Positions 1 to 12,331 of a stretch of 12,331 nt of DNA are shown one piece after another (positions within the stretch are counted from its first letter, which is position 1; the number at the start of each line of letters is the position of its first letter). The stretch is from Pseudomonadota bacterium (GTDB lineage: Bacteria > UBA10199 > 2-02-FULL-44-16 > JBDRGF01). The stretch spans positions 1 through 12,331 of the forward strand of contig JBDRGF010000035.1 in assembly GCA_043818055.1 (NCBI GenBank), in the 5' to 3' direction. Under the pieces are notes generated by a model. It did no database searches. It saw nothing but the letters and a program-made list of their open reading frames with translations, and was not told the DNA's origin. The position numbers and the translations under genes were made by a program.

Positions 1-115
1 TGTTTATGACCGAATTGAACTATTTAGCAGGTAATATGAATGGATTTTCAAAGTGGGTTTGAACTCGATACCGTTAAGATCATTCTGCCATCTAGAGTTT
101 GCACGGACCGGGAGT

Positions 116-152
116 GTCTAAAAAGTTAGACTGTGAGTCTAGACTTTTAGAC
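116..152. promoter_or_regulatory. Two tandem palindromic sites GTCTA-N6-TAGAC (116-131 and 137-152); putative upstream activator sequences for a sigma-54 enhancer-binding protein
   Basis: GTCTA-AAAAGT-TAGAC and GTCTA-GACTTT-TAGAC are offset by 21 bp (two helical turns). They lie about 100-140 bp upstream of the predicted sigma-54 start site (~254), the usual position for bEBP sites. Confidence 0.75.
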
Positions 153-198
153 GTTTTTGGGAGGCTCCAAAAAAGTGTGTTTTTATAATACTCAATAA

Positions 199-211
199 TA
201 TCAACAGGTTA
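199..211 (+). promoter_or_regulatory. IHF binding site
   Basis: TATCAACAGGTTA is an exact match to WATCAANNNNTTR. It is preceded by an AT-rich tract and sits between the palindromes and the -24/-12 box, as is canonical for sigma-54 promoters. Confidence 0.75.
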
Positions 212-227
212 AAGAAAAACAACAAGT

Positions 228-243
228 TGGCATGAAGATTGCT
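228..243 (+). promoter_or_regulatory. Sigma-54 (RpoN) -24/-12 promoter
   Basis: TGGCATGAAGATTGCT matches TGGCACG-N4-TTGCW with one mismatch and has exact GG-N10-GC spacing (GG 229-230, GC 241-242). Predicted TSS is ~254. Confidence 0.85.
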
Positions 244-413
244 ATGCGCAAGACAAATGTTGATTGACTATTTTCTTTATGCAATGATAAATGTATGGAT
301 TTTTTGATATATTTTTGAAACTATTAAGGTGCCCTCTTAAGTTATTGATTGGGATAATGCAATAAGAAATTGTATATTAGAATTTCTGGCACCAAAACAA
401 AAGAATTAGGCAT

Positions 414-1754
414 ATGATAGAAAATGTAGACAGAAAGAGTATAATTAAATTCGCATTTCCACTTATTCTTACAGGAATGTCATACATTATGATGACTACT
501 GTCGATGCAATTTTTGTTGGTAGGTTGGGTGTTTCTCAAATTGCTGCTGTAGGATTGAGTGGCTTTCTTATCTGGGCGTTCTATAATTTTTTTACTGGGA
601 TTCCACTCAGCGTTAACACTTTTGTCTCACAGCATTTTGGTGCAAAGAATTACTCTAAAACAATTGTATCGGTTTATAACGGGATGCTGATTATTATTAT
701 CTCTAGTTTGCTATTGTTTTTCATTCGCATATTTACACCAGAGATATTAAAACTCATGAAACCTTCTCAAGAAGTACAAAAAATGGCTGTAATTTATACT
801 CAGATGCGATTAATGGGTGCGCCATTTTATCTTGCTAACTATGTTTTTGCCTCGTTTTATCGTGGAATAGGTGATAACAAAATAATATTAAAAATTAACA
901 TTGTAATTAATATCATCAATATTTTCCTAGATTATATTTTAATATTTGGTTTCAGTGAAATAAAGGGGATGGGTATTAAAGGAGCTGCCATTGCAACTGT
1001 TATAAGTCAGCTGATCGGCACATTAGCATATATTGTACTATTTTATAAATTTAAGTGCGAAGAGAATAAGAATTCAAATTACAAATTAAGATTTGATTCA
1101 TCTGAATTAGTTACTTTGGTAAAAGTAGGATTTCCTCGTGGCTTGGCTATGTTTGCGGAGCTTTTTGCAGCTTTTGTCTTTGTTACACTGTTAGGTCGAC
1201 TAGGCGATGCACAATTAGCTGCTAGTACCATAATGCTCCAGATAGTTCTTTTTTCAAATATAACAGCACTTGGTTTAGGGCGTGCAGGGGCATCTTTAAT
1301 AGGCCAATTTATAGGAGCGAAACGAAAAGAAAGTGCGTATAAAAGTGGTTACTATTCAGCAGAGATAAATTTTACATTTACAGTGATGTTTTCTGTACTT
1401 CTTATTATAAATTCAAAAAATATTTGTTCAATTTTTAATACGGATCCTAACGTAATACTTTTTTTTGATCGAATTGTAGTTTTTGGAGCTATATTTGTAT
1501 GTTTTGATGGTCTACAAATCATAATGAATTATTGTCTTGGCGGAGCTGGAGATACAAAATATCCCCTCTATATTATCTTAGTTGTAGCTTATCTTATATT
1601 TATACCCTTAGTATATTTACTTGCGTTTCATTTTGAATACGGAATATGGGGTGCATGGTTAGCATCGAGTATATTTATTGTTTTGTACGGTACGCTTCTT
1701 TTTTATAGATTTGTAAAAAAAAGATGGCAAATGATTAATTTAATGCCTGCTTAA
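414..1754 (+). CDS. MATE family efflux transporter (NorM/DinF-like)
   Basis: 446 aa with about 12 hydrophobic segments in two similar halves. MATE-typical motifs: FAFPLILT, VDAIFVGRLG, VSQHFGAK, RGIGDNK, NIFLDYILIFG..MGIKGAAIAT, GQFIGAK, GAGDTKYP, GIWGAW. Confidence 0.95.
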   Translation: MIENVDRKSIIKFAFPLILTGMSYIMMTTVDAIFVGRLGVSQIAAVGLSGFLIWAFYNFFTGIPLSVNTFVSQHFGAKNYSKTIVSVYNGMLIIIISSLLLFFIRIFTPEILKLMKPSQEVQKMAVIYTQMRLMGAPFYLANYVFASFYRGIGDNKIILKINIVINIINIFLDYILIFGFSEIKGMGIKGAAIATVISQLIGTLAYIVLFYKFKCEENKNSNYKLRFDSSELVTLVKVGFPRGLAMFAELFAAFVFVTLLGRLGDAQLAASTIMLQIVLFSNITALGLGRAGASLIGQFIGAKRKESAYKSGYYSAEINFTFTVMFSVLLIINSKNICSIFNTDPNVILFFDRIVVFGAIFVCFDGLQIIMNYCLGGAGDTKYPLYIILVVAYLIFIPLVYLLAFHFEYGIWGAWLASSIFIVLYGTLLFYRFVKKRWQMINLMPA

Positions 1755-2003
1755 TAAGCTATATCATCCTATGAAAAATCTATCATGGAGGCCCCAATGG
1801 CTATTAGACAAAAAGGAATAGTGAGCTTACCCAGAATATTACATATAAGAAAGCAAATATCATTTGGTTCAAATCACATTACTCCTAGCGAAGATGGAAA
1901 AAAGCTCAACCGACAAAAATTTTATTTAAATACTAATTGTTTTTGGCGTCAAAGAAATGGTGATCGACATGAAATTCGTAATGGCATAGGGGAAGGAGTT
2001 TTA

Positions 2004-2888
2004 ATGTCACAAGGAGAGGATGCTTATAGATCTGCCCATAATAATAGTCAGTCAAATGATGGTACAGAAGAAATTGGAATGTTCAAACAAGTAATGAATC
2101 TCGAATTACAGGTGCTCATGGAGAGACACTTAAGATTACAAGTAGACATATCATTAGACACACATCGCAGCTTTCTGCATCAACATGGGATTGAAAATTG
2201 CGAATCTGTTCTAGATGTAGGAACTGGCACTGGATACTTTTTATCACGATTAGCTACTTTCTATCCTGCAATCAAGTTCACTGGAATTGATTTTAAAGTT
2301 GATCTTATTAAGCGTGCTGAAACAATCTCTGAGGAATTGGGCGTTGAGAATGTTTCATGGATACATGACGATATTAACAATATGCAATTAGATAATGCTA
2401 AAAAGCAATTCGATGGCATACTTTTACGTTTTTCTGCAGTTCATATTCCAAAAATTGATAACACATTGAAATTGCTAAAAGCAATGCTACGTCCTGGTGG
2501 AAAAATTTGGATTATCACTGTGGATTTAGATCATATGTATAGTCAGCCTGAGCATAAGGCTTTTGAATTGTATAAAGAGGGTACTGAAAGGTTATTCAGG
2601 AAACTAGGGATGGATTGTCATATAGGTGCAAAGCTTCCTAAAAGATTGGTGGCTGCTGGTTTCAACAATGTTACACAAGAGTTAGATCCAATGTCTAATA
2701 GAGACTCTGATGATATACGTTCATATCAGCAATTCATGTTAAACGAAGCTAGACTATTTAACTATTATGATTCTGAAGCTATTACGCAAGCTGATTTAAA
2801 AATAATTGGAACTTTTGTTGAAAACACAGTCCCTAGGTCTGATTTTTACTGCACTTATGGTTGTGTTATGATTGCGGCAGAAGGGTGA
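2004..2888 (+). CDS. Class I SAM-dependent methyltransferase
   Basis: Motif I VLDVGTGTG, an acidic residue after beta2 (TGIDF), post-II FDGILLRFSAVHI, and LRPGGKI. ATG 2004 has AAGGAG at 1993-1998 and is the preferred start (294 aa). The frame is open from 1785, with an alternative RBS-bearing ATG at 1797. Confidence 0.9.
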   Translation: MSQGEDAYRSAHNNSQSNDGTEEIGMFKQVMNLELQVLMERHLRLQVDISLDTHRSFLHQHGIENCESVLDVGTGTGYFLSRLATFYPAIKFTGIDFKVDLIKRAETISEELGVENVSWIHDDINNMQLDNAKKQFDGILLRFSAVHIPKIDNTLKLLKAMLRPGGKIWIITVDLDHMYSQPEHKAFELYKEGTERLFRKLGMDCHIGAKLPKRLVAAGFNNVTQELDPMSNRDSDDIRSYQQFMLNEARLFNYYDSEAITQADLKIIGTFVENTVPRSDFYCTYGCVMIAAEG

Positions 2889-2895
2889 TTTTACT

Positions 2896-4878
2896 ATGAG
2901 AGTTTTACTGATTCAACCCCCTCAAAGTCGACCGGAAAAATTAATTTATCTTCCGCTTACCCTACTTACTATCGGTACTGAGATAGCAAGTGTGAACAAC
3001 GAAGTCCGAATACTTGATTTCAATCTTGAATTGCATCGAAGACAACAAATTTTTGATAATAGCCAACTTTCTATACTTGACAGACAAGTATCAGAATTTA
3101 AACCCTCAGTCATAGGATTAACTGCTTCATGTTTTAACCTTCCTATTGTTTTCTATATAATTAAATATTTGAAAAGAAAGTATAAAAACATACAAATTGT
3201 CCTTGGCGGGCCTTATGTTTCATTGATTCCGAATAAAGTTATGTCAGTGTGTCCTGAAATTGATATTGTCGTCATAGGAGAGGGGGAAATTACTTGTAGA
3301 CAATTATTCGCTGACACCAAACTTTCTCTTCAAGACGTGCAAGGTATAATTTATAGAGATAATAATAACGATCTTCATTACAATAATAGTAGAGAGTTAG
3401 TAGGCGATTTAGATCAGTTACTACCTCTCAATTACTCGCTTGTCGATATGGAAGCTTATGCTAATCGAGGAGATGCTTTATATCGCACAACATTTTATGA
3501 GATAGGAAGAGGATGCACATATAACTGTTCTTTTTGCTCAACATCTAAAATGTGGGGAAGAAACTATAGAGTTAAAAGTATTAAAACAGTAATTAAGGCA
3601 ATAAGGGAGCTTAAAGAAAATTATGGAATAAAGAATTTCGATTTTATTCATGATAACTTACTTATTGATTCGAACTATGTGAAACTATTATCCAACACCC
3701 TATTACAAGAAAAATTAAATGTGAGATGGAGCTGCACTGCAAGAGCTGATGGAAATTATGTTGATTCACTTAAATTATTATACGAATCAGGTTGTTATAG
3801 ATTGGTAATGGGCATTGAAACTGCTTCCTCTAAATTACAACATGACATTGGAAAAAGATTAAATACATGCAAATCATTGAATGTTATTAAAGATTGTATT
3901 AAATGTGGATTGCAAGTTTCTCCAACGTTTATGGTTGGCTTGCCAAATGAGTCAAATAGAGATTTTGAAGATACTTTAAAATTGGCATTACGTTGTCGAC
4001 TAGCAGGTTGCAGTGGACTTCAAATTCACAAATATTTACCTCATCCTTCAACAGCTCTTTATGAAAAGAACAAAAATTCAATAGTTAAGCGAAAGCATCA
4101 TCATTACTTCATGGTTTGGAATGAATTATCTGTACCACTTAATAATTTAATACTTAAGCACCCTGACATATTTACATCATTCTTTCATGTTCCAGCCGAA
4201 TCAGGAAGTGAAACGTTTCTTCACGATGCTGAGTATATATCTTATCTCTTGATTAACCATTTTCCTCGCACACTTTTATTACTAACACAGCATTATAATG
4301 TTTCATTTACTACTCTAATAAAATTATTTCAGGATTTTGGTATTACGGGCCATACTTTATACGCAATTAAAGAGCTTGAATTATCTACGATTCTTGAAAA
4401 AATCCTATATACCTATGATAGTAAAATTAGTGCTGATAATGTTTTTAGCAATATTTTAAAATATGAAAGTACAATTCACCTTATACAGATTACCGGGATG
4501 GAAAAAGCCAGAGCAAAAAACACTTCAAATATTAGCTCAGAAAGAGGACAGTATTATTTGAATAATCTGTTTAATACAGCTTCATTTTGCTATGACATTG
4601 ATGTGTTAGTTAAAACCATTATTAGTAACAGAGCAAATAAAATTCAAGAATTGGTTTTTCCAGTTCATTACGCATTTGTTTTCTGGAAGGGAACAATTGA
4701 AATATATGAAATAGAAAAACATATTGTAATGATTCTAGCGACTTTGCCATTAATTGGCACACGCGATGAATATTTATTGTCAATTGAAGAGCATGGGCTA
4801 TCAAAATTTGACTCAGTGGAACTCTTCAAAGTCTTTCAAGCTAATCACGTAATCAATTTAAGGGAGGAGGCATTATGA
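2896..4878 (+). CDS. Cobalamin (B12)-binding radical SAM enzyme with C-terminal extension; putative RiPP maturase
   Basis: N-terminal B12-binding fold pattern (RVLLIQPP..LPLTLLTI..VRILDFN..PSVIGLT..IVLGGPY..DIVVIGEGE). CxxxCxxC motif GRGCTYNCSFC at 3514-3537, followed by FIHDNL, W-C-ARAD, MGIETAS and FMVGLP. ATG 2896 is preferred over 2872 because it follows AAGGGTGA and the domain begins there. Confidence 0.92.
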   Translation: MRVLLIQPPQSRPEKLIYLPLTLLTIGTEIASVNNEVRILDFNLELHRRQQIFDNSQLSILDRQVSEFKPSVIGLTASCFNLPIVFYIIKYLKRKYKNIQIVLGGPYVSLIPNKVMSVCPEIDIVVIGEGEITCRQLFADTKLSLQDVQGIIYRDNNNDLHYNNSRELVGDLDQLLPLNYSLVDMEAYANRGDALYRTTFYEIGRGCTYNCSFCSTSKMWGRNYRVKSIKTVIKAIRELKENYGIKNFDFIHDNLLIDSNYVKLLSNTLLQEKLNVRWSCTARADGNYVDSLKLLYESGCYRLVMGIETASSKLQHDIGKRLNTCKSLNVIKDCIKCGLQVSPTFMVGLPNESNRDFEDTLKLALRCRLAGCSGLQIHKYLPHPSTALYEKNKNSIVKRKHHHYFMVWNELSVPLNNLILKHPDIFTSFFHVPAESGSETFLHDAEYISYLLINHFPRTLLLLTQHYNVSFTTLIKLFQDFGITGHTLYAIKELELSTILEKILYTYDSKISADNVFSNILKYESTIHLIQITGMEKARAKNTSNISSERGQYYLNNLFNTASFCYDIDVLVKTIISNRANKIQELVFPVHYAFVFWKGTIEIYEIEKHIVMILATLPLIGTRDEYLLSIEEHGLSKFDSVELFKVFQANHVINLREEAL

Positions 4879-4925
4879 AGCTAATTGAAGTTGTAGCATG
4901 TGAAGCTGAACAACCAATTGCCTAA
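4875..4925 (+). CDS. 16-aa peptide MKLIEVVACEAEQPIA; putative RiPP precursor or signal peptide precursor (not in ORF track)
   Basis: ATG 4875 overlaps the rSAM TGA stop (ATGA overlap). A strong SD GGAGGAGG lies at 4863-4870. The ORF ends at TAA 4923-4925 and is followed by a perfect hairpin. Confidence 0.75.
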   Translation: MKLIEVVACEAEQPIA

Positions 4926-4939
4926 CTGAAGGAGATACA

Positions 4940-4970
4940 GAAGGAGCGCTTCATGGTGAAGCGCTCCTTC
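4940..4970 (+). terminator. Perfect 14-bp stem-loop; terminator-like or mRNA-stabilising hairpin
   Basis: GAAGGAGCGCTTCA (4940-4953), loop TGG, TGAAGCGCTCCTTC (4957-4970). No U-tract follows, so it is not a canonical intrinsic terminator. Confidence 0.7.
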
Positions 4971-5001
4971 ACTCCCTACCTAGTGGGTATCGACATTCTT
5001 T

Positions 5002-6555
5002 ATGTACAAAAAAATTATTATTATACTTATATCTTCACTACTCTATTCTACTTTTTGTAATGCCGCAACATATGTTTCACCTATGCCAAGTCTCAATCTA
5101 GTATTGGATCCAGTTAAGGCAGCAGAAGGATTTAGTTTTCTAGTGATAAATCAAATGTGCGATCGTTTAGTCACATATGATGAAAAATTAAATATTGTTC
5201 CACAACTGGCTAAAAAATGGTCCGTGAGTAATGATGGGCTCACTTATACTTTTGTATTGCGAGAGAATGTTTATTTCCATGATGGCAGGTCAGTTAAAGC
5301 TACCGATGTTGTCTGGTCCTTAACTAGAATGCTTAAACGAAGCTCAGTAAAGTTCCATGAATTATCTTACATTAAAGGTGCAGTAGAGTATCATAATAAT
5401 AAAGTTAAGACTGTTACAGGTATTCGAGCTAAGGATAATGTTACGATAGAAATAGAATTGACAAGACCATATCCACCCGTTCTATCTGTATTGTCAGCTC
5501 CTGGTGCAGAAATTTTTCCTAAATTGAAGGACGAAAAATCTGAAATGCAATTTTTTAAAGCGCCAATTTGCGCTGGTCCTTACCGACTTATTAAAAGAAC
5601 TAATAATCTAATAAAATTAGAAGCGTTTAATAAATATTATGAGAAGGCTGATCGCACAGAGTTTATTGAATTTAGACTTTTAAAAAGAAAGGATGCGATT
5701 CAATGTTTTATAGATAAGCAATGCCATGATTTACGATGGTATTTTATGGCACCTGATGAATTGAGTGGCGATTACAAAATTGAAAAATCTGAAGTCGCGC
5801 ACGTAAATATTATTGCATTCAATGCTGCTAGATATCCATTCTCTGATCCTAATGTGCGTAAGGCGATTACTATGGCAATTGATCGTGAAAAATTAAGGAA
5901 ATTATGTTATCCCGATAAAAGACAGGCTCATGGCTATATTCCTACAGGACTTGGAGGGTATGATTTGCATGCTAATGAAATACAATTTGACCCAGTGAGA
6001 GCTAAAAAGATTCTAGAAAAGATAGGTTTAAATAAAAGCGTTCTTAGAAGAAAATATACATTGATAAGAATGACAAATTATATGTGTCAAGATAACTTTA
6101 AGAAGTTTATCGAGACGTCGTTGGGCAAAATTGGTTTAAACGTTGAGGTAGTGCATGTTCCACCTGATATGTTTGTAAATAAATATCTCTATCCTCGTAA
6201 TTATGACATGACTAATTTTACAATGACCTCGGATTATTCTGAGGCCTATTTTCTGCTCAATTATTTTAGAAGCAATTATCCCTCAAATTACACTGGCTTA
6301 AAAGATGAAAAAATTGATAATATGCTGGATGAGTCTACTAAAGTCGATAATAGATATGAGCGTTATAAAATATATCGTAATATTCAAAATCGCTTATTAG
6401 AACTCGCTCCAATAATTAATATGTATCATGATATATGGGTAACATATTATCAGGGTAATATTGTAGATTATCAAAATACTTCATTATCGATATACAATAC
6501 ATTAATTAGAAACGTTAGGTTTATTGGCAGTGAAGACAGAAACTTACTTAAATAG
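5002..6555 (+). CDS. Family-5 (OppA/DppA-like) extracytoplasmic solute-binding protein; orphan (no permease or ATPase in the window)
   Basis: Signal peptide MYKKIIIILISSLLYSTFCNA-A. Family-5 signature LDP..DRLV.YD..IVPQLAKKWSVSNDGLTYTFVLRENVYFHDGRSVKATDVVWSL, plus PICAGPY, FN..YPFSDPNVRKAITMAIDRE and NYTG..DEKIDNML. Confidence 0.93.
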   Translation: MYKKIIIILISSLLYSTFCNAATYVSPMPSLNLVLDPVKAAEGFSFLVINQMCDRLVTYDEKLNIVPQLAKKWSVSNDGLTYTFVLRENVYFHDGRSVKATDVVWSLTRMLKRSSVKFHELSYIKGAVEYHNNKVKTVTGIRAKDNVTIEIELTRPYPPVLSVLSAPGAEIFPKLKDEKSEMQFFKAPICAGPYRLIKRTNNLIKLEAFNKYYEKADRTEFIEFRLLKRKDAIQCFIDKQCHDLRWYFMAPDELSGDYKIEKSEVAHVNIIAFNAARYPFSDPNVRKAITMAIDREKLRKLCYPDKRQAHGYIPTGLGGYDLHANEIQFDPVRAKKILEKIGLNKSVLRRKYTLIRMTNYMCQDNFKKFIETSLGKIGLNVEVVHVPPDMFVNKYLYPRNYDMTNFTMTSDYSEAYFLLNYFRSNYPSNYTGLKDEKIDNMLDESTKVDNRYERYKIYRNIQNRLLELAPIINMYHDIWVTYYQGNIVDYQNTSLSIYNTLIRNVRFIGSEDRNLLK

Positions 6556-6560
6556 AGATT

Positions 6561-8855
6561 ATGAAAGACAAAAAAACACTCTACCATTCTTTTCTATATG
6601 CATTGCCTTTTATTACCTTTGTTTTTTGGGTAATCATTGCTGTTTGCGTTATAGTTTTATCAAAAAATGCTGTTTATCATGAACATTCTGTTATGATGAC
6701 AAGAGTATTGAAAAGTCTGTCAACTCAAGTTGCAAAAGACATTCAATATGGGGACTATTATCAAGTTAAAAAAACGTTTGGGGACTTTTATGATGGTTCA
6801 CAAATGCGCTATTTTGCACTTTATCTCGCTAATGGTAATTTGATTGTTGAGTATCCCGATTCTGGACAAACATCAAAAGATGGTCTTAAATTCCATAGCA
6901 ACATTCGAGACGGACAGGGAGATGTTATCGGTTCAATAATATTAGAAAGTGATACAAGCTCTACTGATAGAATCATATTTAAAGAAATTATTTTTTTTGT
7001 TATATTTGGGGTTTGTATAGTCATTATTGAAATGATCATTTTGTTAATTATGGCTAAAAGATATTTGAAACCTATAGCAAATTTTGCTGCTGAACTTGAT
7101 ATTATCAACCCCAATAATTATGAGGAAATCGAAGGGTATATCTTGAATTGTCAACAAAAATCATATGCAACAAAAGAACTGCAATCTTTTACGAAAGCGT
7201 ACTCTAGATCCATTCAAATGATATTAGCTTTTCATAGAAAAGCGGAGAAAATGAAAACTCTTGCAGCCATCGGTCAAACAACATCCATGCTTGCGCACGA
7301 TGTTCGCAAACCTTTTTCAATAGTTAAAGCAATGATGGAGTCATATGATACTTATATAAATGACCCCGTGGCGTTGAAGGAAGCTAAGCAATCGTTAGAC
7401 AAATCAATCAAACACGTTGAATCGATGCTCAATGACATTATGGACTTTTCCAGGGATGTAAAATTGGATGTTAGACCTGCTTCAGTTATTCCAGTGATTG
7501 ATTTTTCAATTCGTCAGGTTTCCCAGAATCATAAAGATACAGCTATAAATTTTAATTACAATATTACACACACCAAACATCCCCTTATCGATGATGAAAG
7601 AATTGCTCGTGTTTTTACTAATATTCTCTCAAACGCCGTGGAAGCGATCATTCAAATTGGAAAAAGAGAACACGGCACGATTGATATCTCAACTCATGAT
7701 CTTAATGGCCTCGATAACAATACAGTTGCTATTGTTATCGGTAACGACGGACCACCACTTAAAGTAGAGGACATTCCCAATATGTTTGAAACTTTTTTTA
7801 CAAAGGGTAAAAGAAAAGGAACTGGCATAGGGTTGGCTTCAGCGCATAAAATTATAGCTCTACATGGCGGTAAGATTGTTGCTCGCAATAGGGAGGAAGG
7901 GAGAGGAGTAGAATTTATTATCATAGTGCCTGCATCTGATCTCGCTGAGACAAATGACATTTCCAGATTACCCAAGAACATAAAAGAGACACAATTTGTA
8001 GAGGCTACAAAGGATGAGAGTGAGATAGAAAATATGATATCAGATCTTGTAAAGAGCATGCATAACATCAAAATATTGTTGCTTGAAGACGAAGCTCTTT
8101 ACAGGGCATCAGTGAGAAATACGATAAAGCAGAATAGGTCGCTGGACCAAATGATTACATTATATGAAGCCCATAATGTTGGAGAGGCTCTTGCTCTTAT
8201 AAAAAAGGAGAAGATAACACACGCAATTGTCGATATCGATCTGGGAGAGTTGAAAAATGGTTTTGATTTCCTCAATGAAGTTAAAATGGGATTTCCAAAT
8301 CTACGATGCATGGTTCATTCTAATAGATGTATTGAAGAGGATAAAAAGAAAGCTGTTGATCTGGGAGCTCTGGCATTCGTGCCTAAGCCTTTAAATATCG
8401 AACATCTGGTTGAATTTTTGGCAGGTAAAAAAATAGAGAATGCTCAAACAAGTGAGCTTATAGAAAAATCCAAAACTGATAATCATTCAACGATTTTGTT
8501 AGTCAATGACGAACAACCATTAATCATAATGATGAAAAGCATGTTGAACAGTGCCGCTAAGTTAAATAAGGATTCAAATATGATCTTGGAATTTAGCGTT
8601 GCACAAAGTTACGACGAAGCTGTTACATTGATGAAGAATCATAACTTTGATTATATTTTTAGCGATTTAAACTTGAAAGAAACCAAAAATGGAATGGACA
8701 TTATAAAGACAGCCAAAGAACTAAAGCAACTGTCGAAAATATATATAGTCTCAGGTACTCAGCGATGCGATGCAGAGCCAGAAGCACTGGAGCTTGGCGC
8801 AGATGGTTACTTGCAACTTCCTGTAAATGCAAATGACTTCGTTGGAATCATATAA
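6561..8855 (+). CDS. Membrane-bound hybrid sensor histidine kinase (2 TM, periplasmic loop, HisKA, HATPase_c, two REC domains)
   Basis: Two hydrophobic helices flank a ~105-aa loop. H-box MLAHDVRKP (His246), N-box NILSNAVEA, G1 NDGPP, F-box FETFFT, G2 GTGIGL. REC1 is ILLLEDE..AIVDIDL..FVPKP and REC2 is ILLVNDE..IFSDLNL..YLQLP. The gene starts 5 nt after the SBP stop. Confidence 0.93.
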   Translation: MKDKKTLYHSFLYALPFITFVFWVIIAVCVIVLSKNAVYHEHSVMMTRVLKSLSTQVAKDIQYGDYYQVKKTFGDFYDGSQMRYFALYLANGNLIVEYPDSGQTSKDGLKFHSNIRDGQGDVIGSIILESDTSSTDRIIFKEIIFFVIFGVCIVIIEMIILLIMAKRYLKPIANFAAELDIINPNNYEEIEGYILNCQQKSYATKELQSFTKAYSRSIQMILAFHRKAEKMKTLAAIGQTTSMLAHDVRKPFSIVKAMMESYDTYINDPVALKEAKQSLDKSIKHVESMLNDIMDFSRDVKLDVRPASVIPVIDFSIRQVSQNHKDTAINFNYNITHTKHPLIDDERIARVFTNILSNAVEAIIQIGKREHGTIDISTHDLNGLDNNTVAIVIGNDGPPLKVEDIPNMFETFFTKGKRKGTGIGLASAHKIIALHGGKIVARNREEGRGVEFIIIVPASDLAETNDISRLPKNIKETQFVEATKDESEIENMISDLVKSMHNIKILLLEDEALYRASVRNTIKQNRSLDQMITLYEAHNVGEALALIKKEKITHAIVDIDLGELKNGFDFLNEVKMGFPNLRCMVHSNRCIEEDKKKAVDLGALAFVPKPLNIEHLVEFLAGKKIENAQTSELIEKSKTDNHSTILLVNDEQPLIIMMKSMLNSAAKLNKDSNMILEFSVAQSYDEAVTLMKNHNFDYIFSDLNLKETKNGMDIIKTAKELKQLSKIYIVSGTQRCDAEPEALELGADGYLQLPVNANDFVGII

Positions 8856-8921: not shown

Positions 8922-11900
8922 TTATTCCATCATAGGCATATCGACGATAATAGGTGGGGGAGTTTTTGAATTTTCAAGTAAAGAGTTCTGAATGATTTTT
9001 TGCGTGTCTGCATAGCTGATACCTCCGACATAAGGGCGACCGGGGAGGACAAAGGCGCTGGAATGAAAAGATAGGGGGACGCGTTTAATCCCCCACGTTT
9101 CATCTATACAGGCATCTTTTCCTAAAATTTTTTCCCATTTCAAGCATCTGAAAGAATCAGCAATTATTATCCATTCATCTTTGCATTGGAAAATGTAACG
9201 GTCATCCATTGCAAAAGGTTTGCAGCTAGAATCAATTTTCACTGGCTGAAAATTTTCAGGTCGCCTGGATGCTTCACCACGAATTAAAATATCAAAGCTG
9301 TTACCCGGAATATATACACCTAAATCAGGATTATCGGTTCTTGTATGACTCCATCTTGAATAAGGAATGAGAATCAATTCATTTCCTCCAATAACAGGGG
9401 ACTCTATCGAACATTCTTTTGTAATCTTGCAATATTCAAAATGATCGGCAACTCCATCTATTATGGCTCCTGCCCCAGCATCCCAAATCCCACCAAACTT
9501 TTCTCCGTTCAATATGGTGTCAGGATTTTTAACATAAAGAGCATCTACATAATAAGACAAGTTATCGGTCATCAGTTTTTCAATAGAATCACGATCTCTC
9601 ATTGAACTCACATATGTCTGATATGCCCAGCCCGGAGCGGCTTTCAGTTGTTCATCTGTCAGATATTTTGCCTCGAAATCCCATATTCCATCAAGTCCGT
9701 TTGGCCCTCCTAAATCAACTCTCCAGTAACCATCTGAACATAGGATTGATATGTCCGCCCAGCCATCTGCAAATCTATGACCTTGGATATGTCGTCCTCC
9801 TAAATCACTCACCGCAGGCCTTGAGTATTTGCTCTTCCATGGGTCGATATTTAATTCGTCCTTCCAGTCATATTGAAGCTCTTTGTCCCACTTTGTTATC
9901 TGATTTTCTCTCCCGTTTATGTAATCGACGTTCATATATTCGATATGCCATTTGCCATGCTCTTTATCGTAAAGCATTAGATCAGATCTGTGATCTGCGT
10001 CCATGTCCTTCACATATGGCAAAACCCATTTACTGTTGAGCTGGTTATATTTGATCATGATATCCCATGAGCCGTATTTCTCCGGATATTTATCACAATA
10101 GCCGTCTGTCTCTTTCACTCCTTTGAGATCGGAACACCATGCGCTATCAGCACCCTTTGAACTCAAATCCACCTTAAACTCCCCCCTCTTCCAGCTCACA
10201 AGATCCATCAATCCATCGCCATCGACATCCATATCGACACTCATCTGATCTCCACTCGGCCAGAGAAGATCATCCGAACACAATGGATCGCTTGAGCTGC
10301 CGTCGGGATCGTATTTTATGCAGACCAGCCCTACTCCCTCTGAACGCATCGATATAATATCCTGTTTGCTCATTCGATTGATAGCGCCTGTTTTTTGTTT
10401 CAACGCTGGATATTTTACAGAAATCGTCTGCCAGTAGTTATCGACAGCTTTTAATAGTTTATCCATCTTAGGCTGGACGCCGATTTTCCTGCCGGTTGTA
10501 TCCTTCTGACTATCGCCAGTTGATCTAACAAACTCCCTCAGCTTCTTCGGCATGATATATCTCATCCGTCCATTGCCTGCTAATTGCATAAATCTGCTCT
10601 GAGCCAGTGTAACAGCTCCACCGACTATCGCAGTTGCAGCCGAGGTTCCGCCAAATCTGTTTGTATAGAACTTGTGTTTGTCGTTCACAGGGTCCTGGGA
10701 TGGCGGGCCGTTTGCGCCGCTCCAGTAAAAAGGAGAGGTTGAAGCATCGCCATATGGATATGATGTCGTAACTATGCCGCTACCCCATGAATATGTATCA
10801 ACACGGGGGCTGTAGTTGCTAAAAGATGCCTTTTGCATATTAGCACCTTCGCTTGCTCCTACCATAATAGCCCCGCTGTCCTGTGTCGTCGGATTGACCC
10901 AGACACTCCACTGGCCTGTGTATTGAGCATGGTCGCCGATATCTAAACCGGAATTCCCGGCACCTTCAACGACTGTGATTCCCATCGCTGAAAGCGTTTG
11001 GAAATATTTCATCTTGTCGGGAACAACCTCCGAAGGTAACTGACCAGCATTATAACAGGGCTCGCCAAACTTACAGTCTATTTTTCCATCCTTCCCCATT
11101 ACTGCGGATTCGATGAGATGAACTGAACCCGGGAATGTGTTCGAATCATGATCGTCACCTAATGGGAAAATATTTGCCTCTTTATAATAAACCGGCGGAT
11201 TCCCGGCTAATAACTTTGCATCCGGTGCAATCCCCCTTACGCCAAAATTAGAGGTTCCATTATGTGAAGCGTTTACCATGCCTGCAACAGCTGTCCCGTG
11301 TCCTATTACCAGATACATACAATCAATGCCGCACGATATGTAATATGGTTGTTTGTCCATCGGGAGATGATCTGCAAGAGATGTTTTTTCTCCAACGAGA
11401 GAGCCCTTTGGATTGTTCTGTTCATCATATACTGTATAGTTAAGCTGTAGATCCTCGTGAAAGAAATTATATGCTGCATCATCGTTGTATATATGCACAC
11501 CTTTGCCTGTAACTCCAAGATTCCAGGCATATTGAGTATCTATTCCTCCATTTGCTGTCAAATATCCCTGCTGGGATGAAAGATCGGGCGTCGTTATAGC
11601 TGTGAGCACCTTCTGCAGATGGGGATAGATGTATTCGACGCCGTAGAAATCTTTTAGTTTGTTGTATAAAAGAAGAGCCTCTTTGGGTTCTGCCTTGAAG
11701 TAATAGATCGAGTTGAGATCGGGGAGTTCTTCGGAGTTTAATTCTTCAAGATCGCGTTTGAAAGTGTCATAAGCGTCCTGATCCATATTGAGATATCGTC
11801 TCACCTCAACCGATGGATGTTCTTCGAGTATTCTATTAAGATCATCGGCAAGGGTTTGATAGTAGAAGTTGCGCACTTCGAATTGGGGTTGTGGTTTTGT

Positions 11901-12164
11901 TGCTGTATTGTAGGGGCAGACCCCCGTGTCTGCCCATTTATAAGAAGGCGGGCAACCACGGGGGGTTGCCCCTACATTTAATCTAACCTTCAAATCATCC
12001 CTGAAATGCACGACGAGCTCACCGAGATATCGATCGGACATTATCATATCTTCAGGGGTTAGCTCTTTGGTTATGGAATCTGTGGGAGGGTCGTAAAGAG
12101 CATCATTTCCTTTGCTTCCGCAACCTGCAATTAAAAATAAAAACAGTAGGAAGAAAAGGCGCAT
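8922..12164 (-). CDS. S8 family (subtilisin-like) serine peptidase lipoprotein with N-terminal prodomain and C-terminal FG-GAP/VCBS-like repeats
   Basis: Likely start is ATG 12164 (Met51 of the track ORF), giving MRLFFLLFLFLIAG-C with a lipobox. Triad motifs are GKGVHIYNDD (Asp), GHGTAVAG (His) and FGGTSAATAIVGG (Ser), with oxyanion GAGNSG and ASFSNYS..VD. Ca-binding-like repeats DVDGDGLMDL, DMDADHRSDL and ADGWADI follow. Confidence 0.9.
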   Translation of the reverse strand: MRLFFLLFLFLIAGCGSKGNDALYDPPTDSITKELTPEDMIMSDRYLGELVVHFRDDLKVRLNVGATPRGCPPSYKWADTGVCPYNTATKPQPQFEVRNFYYQTLADDLNRILEEHPSVEVRRYLNMDQDAYDTFKRDLEELNSEELPDLNSIYYFKAEPKEALLLYNKLKDFYGVEYIYPHLQKVLTAITTPDLSSQQGYLTANGGIDTQYAWNLGVTGKGVHIYNDDAAYNFFHEDLQLNYTVYDEQNNPKGSLVGEKTSLADHLPMDKQPYYISCGIDCMYLVIGHGTAVAGMVNASHNGTSNFGVRGIAPDAKLLAGNPPVYYKEANIFPLGDDHDSNTFPGSVHLIESAVMGKDGKIDCKFGEPCYNAGQLPSEVVPDKMKYFQTLSAMGITVVEGAGNSGLDIGDHAQYTGQWSVWVNPTTQDSGAIMVGASEGANMQKASFSNYSPRVDTYSWGSGIVTTSYPYGDASTSPFYWSGANGPPSQDPVNDKHKFYTNRFGGTSAATAIVGGAVTLAQSRFMQLAGNGRMRYIMPKKLREFVRSTGDSQKDTTGRKIGVQPKMDKLLKAVDNYWQTISVKYPALKQKTGAINRMSKQDIISMRSEGVGLVCIKYDPDGSSSDPLCSDDLLWPSGDQMSVDMDVDGDGLMDLVSWKRGEFKVDLSSKGADSAWCSDLKGVKETDGYCDKYPEKYGSWDIMIKYNQLNSKWVLPYVKDMDADHRSDLMLYDKEHGKWHIEYMNVDYINGRENQITKWDKELQYDWKDELNIDPWKSKYSRPAVSDLGGRHIQGHRFADGWADISILCSDGYWRVDLGGPNGLDGIWDFEAKYLTDEQLKAAPGWAYQTYVSSMRDRDSIEKLMTDNLSYYVDALYVKNPDTILNGEKFGGIWDAGAGAIIDGVADHFEYCKITKECSIESPVIGGNELILIPYSRWSHTRTDNPDLGVYIPGNSFDILIRGEASRRPENFQPVKIDSSCKPFAMDDRYIFQCKDEWIIIADSFRCLKWEKILGKDACIDETWGIKRVPLSFHSSAFVLPGRPYVGGISYADTQKIIQNSLLENSKTPPPIIVDMPMME
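11909..11976. repeat. GTAG-type REP doublet (REPIN-like) inside the S8 CDS
   Basis: TGTAGGGGCAGACCCCCGTGTCTGCCC (11909-11935) and an inverted copy at 11950-11976 (reverse complement TGTAGGGGCAACCCCCCGTGGTTGCCC). Each is GTAG followed by a palindromic stem; the spacer is 14 bp. Confidence 0.85.
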
Positions 12165-12187
12165 GTAGCATGTGGTGAAAGAACTCA

Positions 12188-12282
12188 CCCCCATCCGCCC
12201 TTCGGGCACCTCCCCCCGTTCAGGGGGAAGGGCAGAGGGGAAAGTATCATTGAGGGCACCTTCCGCCGTCCAGGGGGAAGGG
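12188..12282. repeat. GC-rich structured intergenic repeat; one long copy and one partial direct copy
   Basis: CCCCCATCCGCCCTTCGGGCACCTCCCCCCGTTCAGGGGGAAGGG (12188-12232) has a GCCC-TTC-GGGC hairpin and a CCCCC..GGGGG hairpin. Positions 12204-12232 are repeated at 12254-12282 with 3 mismatches in 29 nt. Confidence 0.7.
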
Positions 12283-12301
12283 AGGGGACAGAAAGCAAAG
12301 C

Positions 12302-12327
12302 GGGCGGGTTTCAAACCCGCCCCTACA
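12302..12327 (-). repeat. GTAG-type REP element
   Basis: The reverse complement is TGTAGGGGCGGGTTTGAAACCCGCCC: GTAG followed by a perfect GGGCGGGTTT/AAACCCGCCC palindrome, with the same TGTAGGGGC head as the 11909-11976 copies. Confidence 0.85.
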
Positions 12328-12331
12328 TTGA

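Follow-up and report, generated by a model that had tools for sequence, protein, structure and literature searches.

A sigma-54 operon that may make a small modified peptide and sense it through a binding protein and a hybrid kinase

The question raised by the stretch of DNA considered here, the entire 12,331-nt contig G000:C35 from a Pseudomonadota bacterium (hereafter the window), is whether a single operon makes a small modified peptide and also encodes the receptor that senses it. Between positions 414 and 8855, five genes and a tiny open reading frame (ORF) follow each other on the + strand, coding for a MATE exporter, a class I methyltransferase, a B12-dependent radical S-adenosylmethionine (SAM) enzyme (B12-rSAM), a peptide of 16 codons, a family-5 solute-binding protein (SBP5 or SBP) and a hybrid histidine kinase (Table 1). 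This gene set stands behind sigma-54 promoter elements, its tiny ORF is translationally coupled and followed by a hairpin, and its layout recurs at other loci. The GC content of the cassette is 33.7% compared with 43.3% for the genome, which comprises 2.9 Mb, is 93.6% complete and encodes BamA, so that the host, an uncultured organism, is a diderm. In the following, G000 denotes this genome, G001, G005 and so on are other genomes of the phylum, whose 93 genomes all belong to a single class, and Cn stands for a contig. That the locus is a make-and-sense cassette, i.e., a sigma-54 operon that makes a small modified peptide and senses it via an SBP docked on the kinase, has in our judgment an even chance of being correct.

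With regard to the making of a peptide, an earlier note based on the sequence had taken the rSAM enzyme to be peptide-directed, and its modelled structure and family matches bear this out in that it is probably a peptide maturase. Its best NCBIfam match is ApyD (NF050148; 197 bits against a cut-off of 750, residues 21-614). The predicted structure, with a predicted local distance difference test score (pLDDT) of 89, ends in a C-terminal beta-hairpin plus three helices, and the overall fold matches those of TsrM, TokK, OxsB, CysS, and MgmA. Residues 411-657 match TglI (8hci_C; Z 10.9, root-mean-square deviation 5.3, 231 residues aligned) and residues 437-658 match NGO1945 (3dee_A; Z 10.4, root-mean-square deviation 4.1, 186 aligned), both Z values being middling. 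In two reports, TglI's C-terminal domain is described as a recognition element (RRE) for peptides made by the ribosome and modified after translation (RiPPs) that is required for precursor binding (PMC10880893, PMC9016710), and a C-terminal region with the TglI fold therefore makes a peptide substrate likely. Modelled in isolation, this domain reached a pLDDT of 56 and gave no useful structural match, and Pfam holds no family for it or for the periplasmic domain of the kinase. The closest rSAM homologue, P0002, is 41% identical over 99% of the length. In a FastTree phylogeny of B12-rSAMs the cassette enzymes do not form one supported clade, so that this tree cannot tell cassette membership. 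A scan of GTDB contigs with the single rSAM protein gave 43 pattern matches and no relatives; a scan with the alignment, in which the best 80 of 595 matches were confirmed, yielded generic B12-rSAMs throughout, which served as control, and SBP5 genes were found at 0 of 78 of these control loci, many of which are short.

The substrate of this enzyme might be encoded by the 16-codon ORF, which is probably a real gene. It carries the ribosome-binding site (RBS) GGAGGAGG and its start overlaps the stop of the rSAM gene. Its codon score of 0.14, from 16 codons only, compares with means of 0.064 for coding and -0.070 for non-coding sequence, and the peptide has a single Cys, three acidic or amide residues and no aromatic residue. 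The proposal that it is a candidate precursor is upheld by its position, because it occupies a slot that is kept across sister cassettes: an RBS-bearing tiny ORF begins at most about 35 nt from the rSAM stop in all six cassettes that have a B12-rSAM upstream of the SBP (the window, C42 and C99 of the same genome, G033, G005, and G085:C69). The five sister ORFs, two in this genome and three in other genomes, are unrelated in sequence to that of the window; cassette peptides range from 16 to 65 residues and have in common only an alternating hydrophobic/charged stretch near the N-terminus. Strong or significant hairpins follow 6 of the 8 tiny ORFs tested; the one of C99 is not significant, and the segment folded for G033 lies inside the next gene. 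The stem-loop of the window is likely to stabilise the precursor mRNA or to lower read-through. The idea that the ORF is the split-off tail of a CUAEP-type rSAM was dropped, as the CUAEP family scores 34 bits against a cut-off of 500.

Neighbourhood analysis, which the earlier note had called for, shows that the synteny recurs in the same and in other genomes. The order B12-rSAM, tiny ORF, methyltransferase, SBP5, kinase is found in C42 and C99 and again in G033:C3 and G005:C1, and in G085:C69 an rSAM, a 17-codon ORF, and an SBP are arranged as in the window until the contig ends before any kinase. Sixteen loci with sensor-type SBPs were counted, consisting of the window, three found via the rSAM and 12 found via SBP or kinase similarity; a 17th is cut off, and G082:C60 (no maturase) and G084:C143 (cut) were found later and lie outside the count. 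Within 1.5 kb upstream of the SBP, a tiny ORF with RBS occurs at 8 of the 16 loci versus 410 of 3742 genome windows, and one that also has a strong hairpin at 4 of 16 versus 26 of 3742. The sensor module is also combined with SPASM enzymes (G001), and with a B12-rSAM plus MATE and MFS exporters (G014:C58).

Further loci show the module in other company. In G082:C67 (L251:1495-6412), a sigma-54 promoter is followed by a 23-aa acidic tiny ORF, a 354-aa DUF4135-like enzyme, SBP5, kinase, and subtilase, i.e., other peptide chemistry with the same module. G011:C92 (L250:8649-9510, - strand) has a 9-codon ORF with a strong RBS and a hairpin of -39.5 kcal/mol, then methyltransferase, SBP5, methyltransferase, and kinase; a radical SAM gene is absent upstream. 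G057:C129 (L040) and G084:C35 (L252) have SBP5 and kinase with a FemAB-like/GNAT enzyme in place of a peptide maturase, and their ligand is possibly non-ribosomal.

As to the sensing, no permease flanks the SBP, and canonical peptide ABC systems with SBPs of their own are encoded elsewhere in the genome (C102, C21). The nearest solved structures are DppE/DppA, binders of di- and oligopeptides, and the best NCBIfam match is NikA (114 bits, cut-off 393). The kinase has transmembrane (TM) segments at 15-33 and 143-161 that enclose a periplasmic domain, the phosphorylatable residue being His246; its first receiver is complete (D558, K609) and its second is atypical, having D702 but no conserved Lys. 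Its sensor domain is rare, with 36 matches among 1.84 billion representatives. By modelling, the SBP is predicted to dock across the tips of two kinase periplasmic domains: the model of one SBP with two such domains scores 0.61 and the best control 0.02, with reference to a mark that 116 of 157 solved complexes and 2 of 215 mismatched pairs attain; these figures apply only roughly here. Model runs agree in at least 93% of contacts, the pLDDT of the partners is at least 85, and the interface involves the conserved kinase tip (residues 59-68, including an invariant Tyr) of both copies and conserved patches of the SBP, in which a Pro-x-Gly-x-Gly-Gly and an Arg-x-x-Arg patch are conserved.

A second line of evidence comes from 11 loci, at which SBP identity follows that of the TM-periplasmic sensor part of the kinase (r 0.79, Mantel p 0.0002) and not that of the catalytic core (r 0.25, p 0.06), a result that gene adjacency alone could give in part, obtained with loci that are kin and with some low N-terminal identities that are alignment artefacts. 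The window and C42, for example, share 62% identity in the kinase core and 27% in the SBP, and for C42 and C73 the values are 30% in the core and 44% in the SBP. As SBP similarity tracks the sensor part and not the core, SBP and sensor travel as one module. Predicted binding and co-variation thus both agree with the early idea that SBP and kinase are a sensing pair.

The promoter is of the sigma-54 enhancer-dependent type, as is evident from its -24/-12 box, the upstream palindromes, and the presence of rpoN and activators in the genome. The box is the only match in the window, where 0.05 are expected and where 10 of 200 shuffled sequences had one; genome-wide, 61 sigma-54-like boxes compare with 10-17 in shuffles. 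Palindromes of the GTCT-N8-AGAC type lie upstream of 9 of these 61 boxes, about 0.017 being expected per 120 nt. IHF-like matches number 4 in the window versus 1.9 expected. The genome encodes rpoN and has 15 matches to Sigma54_activat, none of them in the window. Family matches, coordinates, and the box search therefore confirm every part of the co-oriented gene set behind a sigma-54 promoter that had been recognised before. Sigma-70-type sites and terminators in the window show no excess over chance, and Rfam has no match there. At G000:C3:37184 (- strand), a sigma-54 promoter with two palindromes closely like those of the window drives a 2348-aa gene beside another hybrid kinase and is a candidate co-regulated target.

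Table 1. Features of the window, in order of position
Feature	Position	Strand	Remarks
3' end of radical-SAM gene	1..62	+	gene sits on contig C3, where it closes a SPASM-type peptide cluster; window start and C3 start dovetail over 141 nt, protein ends match
two GTCT-N8-AGAC palindromes	116-131, 137-152	+	inverted repeats; likely binding sites of an activator (bacterial enhancer-binding protein, bEBP)
IHF-like site	199..211	+	between palindromes and promoter; weak alone
sigma-54 -24/-12 promoter	228..243	+	box match
MATE exporter, 446 aa	414..1754	+	Pfam PF01554 (MatE), TIGR00797 above cut-off
69 open codons in frame with methyltransferase	1797..2003	+	own GGAGG; may extend the gene, be a second precursor fused to it, or be open by chance
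class I SAM methyltransferase, 294 aa from likely start	2004..2888	+	Pfam Methyltransf_31; frame open from 1785
B12-dependent radical SAM enzyme, 660 aa	2896..4878	+	CxxxCxxC C207/C211/C214; predicted TglI-like precursor-recognition region ~411-657
candidate precursor peptide, 16 aa, MKLIEVVACEAEQPIA	4875..4925	+	RBS 4863-4870, ATGA coupling
perfect stem-loop, 14 bp, no U-tract	4940..4970	+	inverted repeat; z -4.5
orphan family-5 (peptide/nickel class) SBP, cleavable signal peptide	5002..6555	+	PF00496
hybrid histidine kinase	6561..8855	+	2 TM, HisKA, HATPase, 2 receivers
secreted subtilase (S8), convergent	8922..12164	-	multi-copy in genome; repeatedly adjoins such cassettes

If the cassette makes and senses its own peptide, residues 2-7 of the peptide, a hydrophobic N-terminal strand, are predicted to bind the TglI-like recognition domain, and the cobalamin enzyme would, in the manner of ApyD, C-methylate an unactivated carbon of the C-terminal half. 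The leader would then be cut off by an unlinked protease and the MATE protein would carry the short product into the periplasm, where it would meet an SBP that is predicted to span the tips of two kinase periplasmic domains; the product-bound SBP would switch His246/Asp558 phosphorylation. The least supported steps are that the class I methyltransferase might act on the same peptide and that the signal might return to the window promoter via one of seven related NtrC-type activators encoded elsewhere (C33, C38, C51, C73, C75, C99, and C133). Sister cassettes C99, C73, and C75 close with such an activator, which is adjacent to their single-receiver kinases. From this gene content, feedback on the window promoter in trans through a non-adjacent activator is possible.

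The weak link of the make-and-sense reading is the one from the sensor to the product of its own cassette, and a number of observations count against this reading as a whole. Regarding the precursor, no peptide homologue was found in the 92 other genomes, where of two pattern matches one lies inside a long gene and one is without a start codon, and in G014:C33, where an SBP is followed by a B12-rSAM, no recognisable tiny ORF comes after the rSAM. When only the 12 SBP-kinase loci identified through SBP or kinase similarity alone are considered, a tiny ORF lies within 1.5 kb at 4 of them. The modelled 1:2 arrangement resembles CBP-ChiS, so that part of the complex score may stem from similarity to SBP-kinase pairs already known, and to this comes the reservation on the Mantel result given above. 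The window has no bEBP, Hpt or co-oriented peptidase gene and the operon no gene for an outer-membrane channel. The double-receiver kinases of this genome (window, C42, C3) have no adjacent activator, and no stand-alone Hpt was found in the genome, its two Hpt matches lying inside long proteins. The methyltransferase is unrelated to those of C42, C99, and C73 (5-9% identity); its family adjoins kinases without an rSAM in G008, G017, and G058, stands in unrelated settings elsewhere, and is without an rSAM in most loci read.

While the anatomy and overall logic given in the earlier note hold up, its more far-reaching statements are not supported. Kinase feedback through a bEBP lacks a gene for it in the operon, and action of the methyltransferase on the peptide finds no support, as its family also occurs in sensor clusters without rSAM or peptide. 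Quorum sensing, rather than sensing of a product in the periplasm, is not favoured either, because the MATE exporter, which falls below the NCBIfam cut-offs for SolL and WgkD, carries its substrate across the inner membrane only. Nor is binding of this particular peptide by the SBP supported by its nearest relatives: in a quick tree, the window SBP forms a clade with those of G014:C86, G058, G026, and G055 (33-42% identity; 97% support in the Shimodaira-Hasegawa-like approximate likelihood ratio test), and the first three stand with kinases but have neither rSAM nor tiny ORF (a LysE and an activator once, M20 peptidases twice), the fourth being cut by its contig, which again tells against the make-and-sense reading. 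These relatives might be solo receptors; alternatively, generic peptides may be what the clade senses.

The latter would fit the main alternative, which we regard as possible though rather doubtful and according to which the operon makes and exports a modified peptide and the SBP-kinase pair is a recruited sensor of another cue, such as protein-breakdown peptides or the product of a neighbour or of prey, that times the expression of this operon and of other sigma-54 genes such as the subtilases. Such a system would resemble ChiS/CBP in sensing a nutrient without autoinduction. Besides the nearest SBP relatives in loci without peptide genes, two of them beside M20 peptidases, the di- and oligopeptide ligands of the nearest solved structures agree with it, as do the common occurrence in the class of SBP-kinase modules that lack a maturase and the subtilases that often flank the module. 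However, the module has repeatedly, and apparently independently, been joined within one operon to differing maturases and tiny ORFs, and the nearest SBPs, with 33-42% identity, do not have to bind the same ligand and may be solo receptors.

It seems unlikely that the product is instead a functional metabolite, i.e., a metal binder or an antimicrobial, which the SBP recaptures or neutralises while reporting its level to the kinase within the periplasm of one cell and not from cell to cell. The single Cys together with the three acidic or amide residues would suit metal binding, the SBP family includes nickel and metallophore binders, NikA being the best NCBIfam match, and a MATE exporter that reaches the periplasm only is accompanied by canonical peptide ABC permeases elsewhere in the genome; yet the sister peptides share no metal-binding motif, some of them lack Cys, and no permease, TonB receptor or immunity gene was found in any cassette read. 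That the substrate of rSAM and methyltransferase is a small metabolite or some other protein, with the 16-codon ORF as an untranslated or regulatory by-product of the rSAM 3' end, is highly improbable, for although no peptide homologue was found, the full-length rSAM fold also matches the non-RiPP methylases TokK and CysS over residues 1-608, and C73, G084:C35, and G057 pair SBP and kinase with methyltransferase or GNAT-type enzymes and no tiny ORF, the strong RBS, the translational coupling, the hairpin, the slot kept in 6 of 6 comparable cassettes, the TglI-like domain, and the rarity of such an ORF with a strong hairpin (just 26 of 3742 genome windows) speak against it.

Returning to the make-and-sense cassette and its surroundings, the left ends of the window and of C73 each show a 141-nt dovetail to that of C3, and window and C73 are 94% identical over their first 319 nt, including all promoter elements. 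Beyond this, C73 encodes an MFS protein, a methyltransferase and an SBP that both differ from those of the window, a kinase, and an activator, and contains neither rSAM nor tiny ORF. These contig-end overlaps suggest that at one locus the same promoter is followed by another cassette in a second strain. As the fork is exactly one k-mer long, two strains with different cassettes are the simplest reading, judging from assembler behaviour. The terminal SPASM-type peptide cluster of C3 encodes a kinase whose core is 70% identical to that of the window. This cluster (L049:80-8739, - strand) lies directly upstream and comprises a multi-TM hybrid kinase, a sigma-54 promoter, a 178-aa exported protein, a 24-aa tiny ORF with hairpin, a PqqD-like ORF, three radical SAM enzymes (two of them SPASM), and MFS; it has a divergent SET-domain gene, and kinase plus SET recur in G001. 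The right end of the window dovetails with C152 (L050:314-15621), the contig of the S10-spc-alpha ribosomal operon, and thus the island sits just downstream of rplQ.

With respect to the methyltransferase, its family is present in 12 of the 93 genomes, and in G085:C271 a member lies directly upstream of a B12-rSAM behind a sigma-54-like box. When metagenomes were scanned with an alignment of the methyltransferase, the matches were for the most part distant class I methyltransferases, and L134, the one locus read out of 80, is without a cassette. The open frame in front of the gene, at 1797-2003, has a chance probability of about 0.003 and a codon score of 0.015, between the coding and non-coding means; the extension is missing in 4 of 5 close homologues, and the G008 homologue has the same start region. 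The open frame occupies the slot where sister cassettes place the precursor, and databases call the long 363-aa form of the methyltransferase.

Some side observations concern the rest of the genome. The subtilase family has about ten genomic copies with 72-85% DNA identity (window, C99, C100, C34, C38, C87, C103, C107, C109, and C148), and members of the family flank the sensor cassettes of the window, C99, G005, G033, G011, G082 (twice), and G016. Both the C42 cassette (L045:8766-13322) and the C99 cassette (33383-37904) have at their flank two Ser/Thr kinase-like genes, of about 350 and 1155 aa. Short palindromic repeats at 11896-11979 and 12155-12331 occur at dozens of genomic sites, once within the subtilase frame, and coincide with several contig breaks. 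Further tiny ORFs with a strong RBS, at C25:3132 (- strand; 34 aa, Cys-rich C-terminus, beside an ABC exporter) and C113:1372 (+ strand; 29 aa, sharing its contig with a split MFS gene), suggest more peptide loci. When the contigs of four public runs were compared with the window, run X1 covered 30 of 30 bins and may be the source sample itself; contigs of the RNA run X3 match exactly within the kinase gene, which is no proof of transcription, and runs with small shares are no evidence of habitat.

Several known systems resemble the locus in part. In agrBDCA and comQXPA, precursor, maturase, and receptor kinase are likewise joined in one swappable cassette, and these are monoderm systems with a kinase that itself binds the peptide; the window differs from them by its diderm host, an intermediate binding protein, radical-SAM chemistry, and sigma-54. 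LuxP-LuxQ-LuxU-LuxO also combines a binding protein with a hybrid kinase, and its output through a sigma-54 activator is matched in sister cassettes. LuxP belongs to another class of binding proteins, and autoinducer-2 is a small sugar derivative. In contrast to the LuxPQ system, the operon of the window has no activator, and no stand-alone Hpt was found in the genome. PrgZ (PDB 4faj), which was found as a structural match, is a family-5 protein like the SBP of the window and is dedicated to a peptide signal, a pheromone, and passes the peptide to an importer and not to a kinase.

Among characterised systems, the aminopyruvatide pathway of Burkholderia thailandensis has ApyD, described as an RRE-containing B12 enzyme that beta-methylates a Tyr of its precursor, and the pathway shares with the window an RRE-containing B12 rSAM, a short precursor, and a class I methyltransferase (PMC10635010). 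The window lacks its P450, its MNIO pair, and its Tyr-Leu-Tyr-Asp core, and adds an exporter and the SBP-kinase pair. With 197 versus 750 bits, partners that are missing from the window, and no aromatic residue in the peptide, the rSAM is not an ApyD equivalog. In CBP-ChiS of Vibrio cholerae, a binding protein, the cluster-C SBP CBP (PMC8449061), acts on a membrane hybrid kinase with one SBP per two kinases (PMC12704726), as in the window by modelling. In contrast, CBP also serves an ABC transporter and senses a nutrient, ChiS itself binds DNA, and ligand biosynthesis genes are not part of the system. Judged by its genes, the locus may function as an RiPP cluster of the ApyD type joined to a receptor of the ChiS/CBP or LuxPQ type, and is a member of neither named system. 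A literature search, mostly without subscription journals, found no published description of this layout, and the supplements of PMC10635010 or of RRE-Finder may list such loci.

Modified-peptide autoinducers are established mainly in Gram-positive bacteria. Tentatively, and inclining somewhat more to doubt than to belief, we propose a diderm family of peptide pheromones in which radical-SAM-methylated micro-peptides would be exported and read by dedicated family-5 SBPs on hybrid kinases with sigma-54 feedback, several channels would exist per cell, and strains would swap maker-receptor cassettes behind one promoter like the pherotypes of Gram-positive bacteria. If true, a diderm lineage would have wired RiPP maturases repeatedly to SBP-kinase receptors, which would extend peptide signalling to uncultured bacteria and give orphan SBPs ligands. 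With a 16-residue substrate, one B12 enzyme, and one soluble receptor, the cassette is compact enough for work in a laboratory host. Even if the sensor were recruited for another cue, the locus would comprise an undescribed B12 methylase of the RRE type, whose precursor is among the shortest, and, in addition, a modular family of SBP-kinase sensors.

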